In this document: positions 20,834 to 20,978 of the stretch, one piece after another | How the letters are laid out: each line of letters starts with the position of its first letter | Position numbering within the stretch: the first letter of the stretch is position 1 | The notes under the pieces: generated by a model | Seen by the model: the letters and a program-made list of their open reading frames with translations, nothing else | Database searches by the model: none | Told to the model about the DNA's origin: nothing | Position numbers and translations under genes: made by a program | NCBI GenBank assembly: GCA_903832635.1 | Contig: CAILCF010000002.1 | Location: forward strand, 7,665 to 71,664 | Direction of reading: 5' to 3' | DNA length: 64,000 nucleotides | Source of the DNA: an uncultured bacterium | Lineage (GTDB): Bacteria > Patescibacteriota > Saccharimonadia > Saccharimonadales > Saccharimonadaceae

Positions 20834-20978
20834 TGCGGGGTGAAAGGACTTGGTCACGATAAAATTCTATCTGAATTTTTCGCGACCCCGCCTCAGTCGG
20901 TGACGTCCGTCATCCGGCTTCCGGCCTTGCGAACTGCCGACGTGGCAGTTCTCACCTTCGACCTTTCGGTCGAAGTTT
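20834..20978 (-). repeat. tRNA-linked T-arm-matched module, family 1 (Pro-TGG copy)
   Basis: Read on the minus strand: aacttcgacc-gaaa-ggtcgaagg, then ggtgagaactgccacgtcggcagttcgcaagg, ggggtcgcg-loop-cgtgacc, then aagtcctttcaccccg (16/16 to the tRNA-Pro 3' end). Confidence 0.65.

Follow-up and report, generated by a model that had tools for sequence, protein, structure and literature searches.

How does part of a proline tRNA gene come to lie, interrupted by a folded sequence, a short way behind the intact gene that it copies? The question is raised by a 64,000-nucleotide (nt) stretch of DNA, the window, from an uncultured bacterium of the Saccharimonadaceae (contig CAILCF010000002.1, positions 7,665 to 71,664), in which a module on the minus strand behind tRNA-Pro(TGG) ends in a repeat of that tRNA. 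The earlier note on this DNA assigned the module to a repeated family, Family 1, and read it as a second copy of the tRNA 3' half with a break in the T loop. We confirm the observation, find support for its interpretation and correct one sub-hairpin. Both the sequence and a covariance model of the family (R1) identify a genuine Family 1 module at this locus, one of three copies in the window. Family 1 is apparently a previously undescribed family in the literature searched, and we judge it on balance probable that its members are non-autonomous, structured mobile elements that live in tRNA genes, keep a working tRNA and carry no integrase.

The intact tRNA-Pro(TGG) occupies positions 21115-21040 of the minus strand, the strand of all features of this locus unless stated (ARAGORN; 64.6 bits with the Rfam tRNA model; T loop TTTAAGT). 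It is followed by a terminator-like hairpin, ggctacc-catcgc-ggtagtc, with A/T-rich flanks (21030-21011), and by a decayed inverted copy of tRNA nt ~45-72, here called X' (cagaGTGAcAGaACTTAAAaCTTCGACC, 20995-20968), which agrees with the reverse complement of tRNA-Pro at 23 of 28 positions. A GAAA loop (20967-20964) joins X' to X (20963-20954), a direct copy of tRNA nt 45-54 (ggtcgaaggt) whose last base is T54. Together these elements form the 8-bp hairpin cttcgacc-gaaa-ggtcgaag (20975-20956) that had been described for the module; the hairpin is present, but its 5' arm is the inner end of the longer inverted copy of the tRNA 3' half. The Family 1 core of 102 nt, delimited from the sequence and R1, extends over 20953-20852, and Y (AAGTCCTTTCACCCCG, 20851-20836) completes the composite. 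Y is a direct copy of tRNA nt 57-72 and matches 21059-21044 exactly, spanning the 3' part of the T loop, the 3' strand of the T stem and the 3' strand of the acceptor, with the ACCA absent. The repeat of 16 nt at the module end is therefore as reported, and the 16-mer occurs exactly twice in the window, where shuffled sequences lead one to expect 0.02 occurrences. The range given for the whole feature, 20834-20978, places it rightly and is 2-3 nt too wide at either end.

The interrupted copy has no tRNA nt 1-44; the intact gene lies 85 nt upstream of it, and the tRNA-Pro and Y repeats are separated by ~190 nt of non-coding DNA. The tRNA-Pro 3' half, the terminator and X' make up one long palindrome with the terminator hairpin at its centre. 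This palindrome accounts for the weak, sub-threshold matches of Rfam microRNA-precursor models, which align 20968-21071 as a single long hairpin. The region folds better than shuffles, with z = -5.05. At the downstream limit of the composite stands a bidirectional terminator hairpin, tttagaagg-tccg-tccttctaaa (20802-20780), which also serves a convergent GalT-like gene (open reading frame (ORF) 19835-20779, plus strand). A 53-nt block that contains the terminator hairpin TTTAGAAGGACGGACCTTCTAAA and a T-rich stretch is found at 20780-20832 and again, 87% identical, at 45475-45527; it adjoins two different composites, in opposite orientation relative to each. The tRNA-Pro(TGG) itself carries T56 and A19 (D loop AGTTGATA) instead of the usual C56 and G19, which by their sequence look like a covarying tertiary pair. 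A TTT T loop occurs in all tRNA-Pro loci retrieved from metagenomes, through a search pattern that fixed those three bases.

Relatives were collected by the exact pattern GAGAACTGCC-N3-8-GGCAGTTCGCAAGG in one genome per GTDB species. The resulting sample comprises at least 126 copies in at least 118 contig stretches, referred to below by L numbers where needed, and fractions of 126 are fractions of the matches listed. Among the listed stretches, those with informative titles are all Saccharibacteria or Patescibacteria, the others being titled just "bacterium". Within the window the pattern has 3 sites, behind tRNA-Pro(TGG), tRNA-His and tRNA-Lys(CTT), and R1, which was built from an alignment of copies with short cores (type B), matches these three copies only. 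Copy B lies behind tRNA-His (31424-31500) at 31556-31677 of the plus strand and scores 103.4 bits, with X' at 31556-31569, X at 31571-31578, the core at 31576-31666 and Y, attcccatca, at 31668-31677. Copy C, behind tRNA-Lys(CTT) (45704-45780), occupies 45836-45969 of the plus strand and scores 95.2 bits; here X' is found at 45836-45852, X at 45862-45872, the core at 45870-45959 and Y, aagtcccacc, at 45960-45969. The tRNA-Pro copy reaches 45.5 bits (E = 1.6e-8) and has type-A insertions in two of its helices, P2 and P3. It belongs to Family 1 in that it possesses a P1-P2-P3 core fitting R1 between flanks that copy the T arm of its neighbour.

The association with tRNA genes is close. An intact co-oriented tRNA lies 70-130 nt upstream of 67 of the 126 matches, which is the layout of the tRNA-Pro locus, and within 260 nt downstream of 32; in these 99 of 126 the neighbour is of the same isoacceptor as the copy. 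Thirteen copies fall at locus ends and 14 have no intact tRNA in range. Several of these 14 orphans retain just the last 6-9 nt of a tRNA and its terminator, and at some composites the intact gene is lost altogether. At least 30 different isoacceptors adjoin Family 1 among the matches listed, and the distance from the tRNA end to the start of the core is stereotyped at 70-99 nt. No Family 1 copies were found in IMG/VR viral contigs. With Rfam 15 at the gathering threshold the tRNA models alone pass in the window, and permissive E-values add only the sub-threshold microRNA-precursor matches. The literature searched yielded no description of Family 1 or of the second family, Family 2, that is treated below.

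The conserved unit is the core, ~90-105 nt with the three helices P1, P2 and P3, as defined on 72 aligned type-B copies; a separate alignment holds 20 type-A copies, including that at tRNA-Pro. P1 starts at T54 of the pseudo T arm. At tRNA-Pro its motif, GAGAACTGCC-ACGTC-GGCAGTTCGCAAGG (20953-20925), follows the consensus structure in forming a helix (20954-20928) of T54-A, G-C, an A.G mismatch and GAACTGCC/GGCAGTTC, after which comes a conserved linker, (C)GCAAGG. P2 is a long arm rich in compensatory changes, with one pair that is AU in 30, CG in 29 and GC in 8 of the 72 copies. In P3 (GGTCGCG/CGTGACC) the column pair 82/98 is GC in 52 copies and CG in 18, the pair 83/97 is UA in 51 and CG in 21, and the terminal pair is G-C in 53 and G.U in 19, while an internal G.U is kept in 66 of the 72. 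Double changes are seen at 15 of 29 pairs of this alignment and at 20 of 37 pairs of the type-A alignment. The latter includes the P2 pairs 41/69 (GC 12, AU 4, CG 3), 43/67 (CG 10, UA 5, AU 2) and 48/63 (GC 13, UA 6).

These covariations determine how the tRNA-Pro copy is drawn. Its type-A P2 arm (GCC/GGC, AG/CU, CGG/CCG, UGACG/CGUCA) extends over 20925-20890. The letters of the previously proposed hairpin ccggaagccgg are there and fall within this arm, but a local hairpin is unsupported, as the 20 related copies covary for the extended P2 pairing. P3 (GGGTCGCG/CGTGACC) spans 20887-20852 together with its inserted arm, aaaaattca-gatag-aatttt, and its final 1-2 nt stand in for tRNA nt 55-56. 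The description of a ggtcgcg...cgtgacc helix with an inserted arm holds: both covary among relatives, the inserted arm with pairs such as AU 12, UA 8 and CG 8, UA 5, GC 5 in type A. Read on the opposite strand, the conserved G.U pairs would turn into A.C mismatches; the fold is therefore assigned to the tRNA-sense strand, be it in RNA or in single-stranded DNA. Several different P2 subtypes exist side by side in one genome.

The position of the core relative to the tRNA is equally constrained. Its left flank is GGT in 98 and AGT in 21 of the 126 matches. The commonest position is the T loop, where the core sits between tRNA nt 54 and 55; less common are D-arm copies following GG, anticodon-loop copies following nt 37 and copies in the variable region. 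Family-wide, X corresponds to tRNA nt ~44-54, X' to inverted nt ~43-60/77 and Y to nt 55/56 onward. In the 58 evaluable copies, too, the left flank is nt ~44-54 and the right flank resumes at 55/56, which bears out the reading of a duplicated tRNA 3' half with an interrupted T loop. With a local T loop of TTCGAAT and a core ending in ...GACT or ...GGT, deletion of the core gives a perfect T arm; in the window copies the T loop is not restored because CC replaces TT or TC. The interrupted sequence is always a partial pseudo-copy of the neighbouring tRNA and never the working gene. It comes in two layouts: a copy of the 3' half that follows the intact gene, the case at tRNA-Pro(TGG), or a 5' part of the tRNA before the intact gene, usually with a -10 promoter box. 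These 5' parts range from identical to clearly decayed, those of L084 and L107 being without G18/G19 and the anticodon stem. Copies of either layout that were studied closely have an inverted tRNA fragment separating the pseudo-copy from the intact gene, and the composite has the order direct, inverted, direct.

The length of Y is not arbitrary. Its exact identity to the tRNA is bimodal over 58-60 copies: one mode, 9-12 nt, reaches the T-stem end, and the other, 21-24 nt, stops exactly at the CCA. In ~20 copies the match runs just to the T-stem end, and in ~19 it runs through the CCA and gives way to an unrelated terminator. The 16 nt of the window copy lie between the two modes, in a family range of 9-64 nt. 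The tRNA-Pro copy is thus intermediate among its relatives and does not carry the longest tRNA 3'-end copy, as had been claimed; many relatives reach the CCA, and in L002 and L004 Y measures 63-64 nt with the terminator included. The terminators of these two genomes differ from one another and are identical within each, and therefore point to recent formation or homogenisation. Nucleotides 56-65 of Y, which close the pseudo T stem, are almost always intact: 51 of 58 copies agree with the tRNA throughout nt 61-65, and at least 35 of 58 form 5/5 pairs in the pseudo T stem. The acceptor strand is again bimodal, with a 7/7 match in 29 of 58 copies and at most 2/7 in 17 of 58. Where tRNA-Pro genes differ, the repeat follows the gene. 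Relatives with G57 (L024, L083, L214 and L127) have G in the repeat, and A57 in the window and in L130 is matched by A. The check by which the earlier note could have been refuted thus favours its reading. Rather than a guide kept complementary, the 16-nt match is a target copy, produced or refreshed whenever an insertion or recombination takes place.

Two further arrangements were seen near composites. Upstream of tRNA-Lys(CTT), at 45574-45646 of the plus strand, a direct copy of its first 18 nt (45577-45594) is followed by a small hairpin, cccagacagcttgcctgtctg, an inverted D-arm copy, gctctaacca (45637-45646), a promoter-like TATAAT and then the intact gene: a direct-inverted-direct order without a Family 1 or Family 2 core. 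The motif (c)ggacggcaggaccc(g) recurs at window positions 2236-2262 (minus strand) and downstream of the cores in L012 and L068, and variants of it occur inside X' of tRNA-Pro composites (ctggcaggaccc). It may represent one more family of small repeats, the third, or else a segment conserved within the inverted copy.

Comparison of tRNA-Pro loci between relatives shows extensive turnover. Metagenomes searched with the tRNA-Pro 3' end yielded 120 loci, most of them empty, many with Family 2 in the layout X'-X-core-Y and few with Family 1; X' alone is present at L138, L221 and L236. The window locus, with A57, carries Family 1. L130, also with A57, has Family 1 together with a Family 2 relic that is common to L133, and L133, a close A57 relative of the window, has Family 2. 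L138 and L221, which share the downstream GalT-like gene with the window, hold an X' orthologous to its own. When the window, L083 and L130 are compared, the cores are 94-98% and the tRNAs 96-97% identical, and the spacer with X' 58-67%. A near-identical empty site for the window or L214 was not obtained, the flanks of the closest relatives being 77-91% identical.

The most layered locus is L214 (4016-4651), where three generations of composites are stacked behind one tRNA-Pro in the order tRNA, first terminator, X', X, Family 1 core, Y (to CCA), second terminator, X', X, Family 2 core and a Family 1 3'-end relic. The second terminator and the sequence beyond it are homologous to the Family-2-only loci L216 and L120, in which this terminator directly follows the tRNA. 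Hence the Family 1 unit of L214 came in between the tRNA body and the old 3' end and brought a terminator, X' and X of its own. At L094 (7690-7999) a single pseudo-tRNA-Glu contains three cores, in its D, anticodon and T loops, and at L060 (7188-7689) an intact tRNA-Gln has composites on both sides. Cores at different tRNAs reach 96-100% identity in their variable parts. For instance, the core of L013 (Lys-TTT) equals that of L079 (Lys-CTT) on the same contig, and the cores of L070 (Lys) and L088 (Thr) are 98% identical.

Proteins that could move such elements were sought among the neighbouring genes. A Pfam scan of 10 ORFs beside window tRNAs returned housekeeping proteins and one helix-turn-helix (HTH) protein; a ComEC-like competence protein is also encoded in the window. 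When 988 ORFs of the loci were clustered, they gave housekeeping families and, in few loci, a large serine recombinase. A screen of the 118 loci for the YxDD motif of reverse transcriptases gave nothing convincing; no IS200/IS605 transposase-like family stood out among the recurrent neighbours, whose clusters were judged by N-terminal sequence only; and no TnpB-, IscB- or Cas-like gene was found among the recurrent neighbouring genes. Small ORFs, namely a 15-codon one in copy B and a Shine-Dalgarno-ATG frame at the Family 2/tRNA-Pro junction, were rejected, as inspection showed them to be unconserved between copies. The serine recombinase genes sit outside composites (L030 1104-2673, L096 5683-7180, L043 4926-6009 and L039 1887-3597), with no core at the far side of these loci. 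In these 4 of 118 loci the gene lies immediately 3' of, and convergent with, an intact tRNA-Gly(GCC) or tRNA-Gln(TTG), and in three of the four (L030, L096 and L043) the same tRNA also has a core-bearing pseudo-copy upstream. They probably mark independent integrated elements that share these tRNAs with Family 1. The HTH protein of the window is encoded by a free-standing ORF of 232 amino acids (30570-31268, plus strand) between tRNA-Arg(TCT) and tRNA-Gly(TCC), with an N-terminal HTH (Pfam HTH_23) and a LAGLIDADG-like motif, LWMIGLGLWIGEGS, read by eye. By these features it could be a homing-endonuclease-like gene; no homologue was found among the 118 related loci.

The closest known parallel is the genomic island or prophage integrated at the T-loop sublocation of a tRNA gene, a group that takes in tandem accretion and integrase-less cis-mobilizable derivatives; the far end of such an island is marked by a displaced tRNA fragment starting in the T loop (PMC4383910). 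There, too, a split target is regenerated by sequence borne on the insert, a displaced 3' repeat stands at the distal end, the newest arrivals lie nearest the tRNA, as in L214, and a foreign terminator comes right after the regenerated CCA. The 16-nt identity at tRNA-Pro is therefore read as displaced or duplicated target sequence, analogous to the attachment (att) repeat of such an island. Islands carry an integrase and cargo between their repeats; Family 1 has neither, and its repeats are ~200 nt apart. Also unlike islands are the folded 90-105-nt core inside the T arm at nt 54/55, the inverted tRNA fragment, the 30 isoacceptors and the mirror versions on the 5' side. The feature is apparently an undescribed variant of the strategy of inserting into a tRNA and yet keeping it, with at least two unrelated core families.

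We postulate that each arrival would be an insertion into the T loop of a working tRNA, bringing a replacement 3' end, a terminator, X' and X, so that the tRNA would be regenerated and older composites pushed outward. The core would move between different tRNAs, its target being the near-universal T-loop sequence GGT^TCRA, and its fold would be conserved because it is needed for propagation, where it may be recognised as RNA or as folded single-stranded DNA. Homologous recombination, for which the conserved tRNA would provide one arm and the short repeat the second, could then carry a finished composite from genome to genome. Saccharibacteria encode competence proteins. By the logic of tRNA-integrated islands (PMC4383910), only arrangements that keep or regenerate a working tRNA would survive. 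X' may have formed by tandem inversion duplication at the palindromes of the terminator and the T arm, with a snap-back cDNA as an alternative. Tandem inversion duplications share with both composite layouts the succession of a direct copy (tRNA nt 45-76 and terminator), an inverted copy (X') and a direct copy (X to Y), with junctions at palindromes, here the terminator hairpin and the T arm with TTCGAA. By this analogy we infer that the composite may have been formed by template switching. Such duplications are otherwise generic and have no conserved insert, whereas here the third copy always carries the structured core, at dozens of tRNAs and across hundreds of genomes.

Several observations weigh against a mobile element of this kind. 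Neither in the window nor in the 118 loci did a search beside the copies turn up a transposase, an integrase or a reverse transcriptase. The D-arm junctions drop 2-4 nt of target and hence speak for some events being imprecise, and the T at the left flanks of D-arm copies does not derive from the target. A displaced 3' end does not predict repeats that end exactly at the T-stem end, and a simple integration model does not explain X', which resembles the middle copy of a tandem inversion duplication. Conservation of the core as strong as that of the tRNA could equally mean a host function. The sample is skewed to one subfamily because every relative was found by the exact P1 pattern, and the invariance of P1 is an artefact of that pattern, which fixed it.

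Should Family 1 indeed be mobile in this way, it would colonise essential single-copy genes without killing its host and without encoding an integrase. Saccharibacteria genomes are tiny, ~1 Mb. In the window, 6 of 8 tRNA genes have composites, the two families contributing three each. Elements of this type break metagenomic assemblies, mislead annotation through pseudo-tRNAs and long palindromes, supply promoters and terminators to tRNA genes and leave a natural record of successive invasions.

Among other explanations, the one we take most seriously, although we consider it fairly improbable, is that the core represents a host-beneficial non-coding RNA family whose pseudo T arm, or acceptor-like helix with CCA, serves as a stability or processing scaffold, so that the flanks are under selection. 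The strong covariation on the sense strand fits such a role, as do the nearly intact T-stem part of Y, the -10 boxes that front-of-gene pseudo-copies retain as their own, the repeat boundary at the T-stem end or exactly at CCA, and a core as conserved between lineages as the tRNA while its flanks have diverged. A functional RNA is kept under consideration because of the last two points in particular. It accords poorly with a locus at which the element is present, absent or replaced by the other family in close relatives, with the lack of any element at most tRNA-Pro loci, and with near-identical cores at different tRNAs, different P2 subtypes in a single genome, stacked, truncated and tandem core arrays, the decay of X and X' and the use of the same niche by two unrelated core families. 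Rather more doubtful is the view of the core as an agent at the RNA level, either a bacterial counterpart of mobile tRNA introns, with a compact four-way-junction RNA that is closed by the T stem and would spread by way of tRNA-like transcripts, or a tRNA-scaffolded RNA kept by the host. Here a ribozyme or tRNA enzymes might cleave and ligate at nt 54/55, with subsequent copying back into DNA. If this were true, two unrelated core families would have converged and Saccharibacteria tRNA loci would be a new arena of RNA-based mobility; a core that acts as RNA would in any case constitute a new structured RNA class and a bacterial parallel to archaeal tRNA gene disruption, which has long been a question in the study of tRNA evolution. 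We regard as unlikely a retro-copy, in which the T arm and core RNA, or a tRNA 3' half, was reverse-transcribed from the CCA, snapped back to yield the X'/X palindrome and recombined beside the tRNA. Reverse transcriptases that start at tRNA CCA ends exist, as in the Neurospora Mauriceville retroplasmid. The ends of the repeat and of X' are RNA-like (CCA, or the base of the T-arm hairpin), X' covers the same tRNA stretch as X to Y, and the core never occurs inside X'. However, no reverse-transcriptase-like ORF was found in the 118 loci, some repeats include the terminator or promoter and thus gene sequence outside the mature RNA, and the CCA is not diagnostic because it is genome-encoded here.

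Just as unlikely, in our estimate, are relics of integrase-borne islands or prophages in the tRNA T loop, with the core as a surviving arm of the element's attachment site (attP). The repeat from T loop to 3' end, the regenerated tRNA with a foreign terminator and the tandem accretion are hallmarks of islands (PMC4383910), and serine recombinase genes do abut the intact tRNA 3' end in the four loci named above. More than 100 copies at 30 isoacceptors nevertheless have no integrase between repeats ~200 nt apart, and the recombinases of those four loci lie elsewhere, which led us to reject the idea. Moreover, the recombinase loci have no core at the far side, viral contigs gave no matches, the core interrupts the T arm where an intact att core would be flanked, some versions lie on the 5' side and others in the D or anticodon loop, and the covariation denotes a folded single strand, unlike protein-binding duplex arms. 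A guide RNA is very improbable, be it a sense scaffold resembling omega-RNA or CRISPR RNA with Y as guide, or an antisense H/ACA-like RNA on nt 45-54 and 57-72 that leaves 55-56 unpaired. The geometry would fit, with a scaffold beside 10-22 nt of target identity or, on the opposite strand, a two-part complementarity. Y, however, has two discrete lengths set by tRNA structure and no fixed guide length, and cutting the sole functional tRNA gene would be lethal; the omega-RNA-like form was rejected on these repeat lengths and for want of a nuclease partner, and the antisense form on the strand asymmetry of the G.U pairs, which become A.C mismatches. Least probable of all is processing of the interrupted copy to a functional tRNA, either as a genuine intron-bearing tRNA or as the 3' half of a split tRNA. 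In its favour are the insertion exactly between nt 54 and 55, the T arm restored by in-silico excision in many copies, several cores in the loops of one pseudo-tRNA, as in archaeal multi-intron tRNAs, and the few loci without an intact neighbouring gene. We reject it because the interrupted copies are incomplete, lacking the 5' half behind a gene and the acceptor 3' strand before one, and because an intact gene of the same isoacceptor is adjacent in the 99 of 126 cases; nor do the Rfam group I or group II models give a match.

Mobile non-autonomous elements in tRNA genes have other partial likenesses. Mobile archaeal tRNA introns at non-canonical positions, with intron transposition in Thermoproteales, and models of tRNA gene disruption (Caldiarchaeum, PMC3293823) likewise present short related inserts in the D, anticodon and T loops of many tRNAs, several inserts in one tRNA-like sequence (compare L094) and tRNA fragments beside genes. 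Archaeal introns interrupt the functional gene itself and are excised by the bulge-helix-bulge endonuclease, whereas the inserts studied here are bacterial and occupy incomplete pseudo-genes beside an intact gene. No bulge-helix-bulge could be drawn at the junctions by inspection, where P1 and P3 engage the junctions, and no formal search for this motif was made. Group I introns of bacterial tRNAs are also structured inserts in a tRNA loop after a U, but they occupy the anticodon loop of a working gene, measure at least ~200 nt and have a P3-P9 core, and Family 1 is otherwise. Its left flank differs from tRNA to tRNA, so that pairing with every flank would be beyond any one internal guide sequence. 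Rfam intron models gave no match in the window at the gathering threshold, in 20700-21200 at E <= 10 or in 45200-46000 at E <= 5.

Miniature inverted-repeat transposable elements (MITEs), REPINs and the IS200/IS605-derived PATEs resemble Family 1 in their size of ~100 nt, their many copies per genome, their hairpins and non-coding nature and their varying presence among relatives. MITEs have terminal inverted repeats and a fixed target duplication, whereas the Family 1 ends, GAGAAC... and ...CGTGACC, are not inverted repeats and its flanking duplications are tRNA segments of variable length, 10-64 nt at each insertion, with an inverted copy. IS200/IS605 elements have similar subterminal hairpins at both ends, a fixed tetra- or pentanucleotide target on the left and a TnpA/TnpB partner; P1 and P3 of Family 1 are unrelated to each other. 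Unlike all of these, Family 1 targets one structural position of tRNA genes. Rfam matches to IS605 or HEARO were absent from 20700-21200 and 45200-46000 at permissive E-values.

Family 2 has three cores in the window, behind tRNA-Lys(TTT) (2118-2222, plus strand), tRNA-Arg(TCG) (45378-45465, plus strand) and tRNA-Arg(TCT) (30327-30237, minus strand). Its layout is like that of Family 1, with an inverted copy, a direct copy, the core and a tRNA 3' copy, and its core sits between tRNA nt 57 and 59, with an ACGGAGGAGC motif that is invariant and a central hairpin that covaries. In metagenomes Family 2 is often met behind tRNA-Pro. R1 finds no Family 2 copies and the Family 2 model, R2, no Family 1 copies; the families are unrelated. 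Two features of the window that are unrelated to Family 1 are four paralogous prepilin-type N-terminal segments (36186-36248, 37147-37209, 37811-37873 and 43843-43905) and a long minus-strand gene (41587-43567) with Gly-rich, GGTGGTGGC-like repeats of 9-nt periodicity. Directly upstream of tRNA-Pro(TGG), at 21135-21168 of the minus strand, lies a hairpin, gcaaacaaacgtgtttgtttgc, with GAGGAGG flanks. It matches the centre of the Family 2 model weakly (12.8 bits, E = 0.57) and, by that resemblance, may be what is left of a degenerate Family 2 copy 5' of the tRNA.

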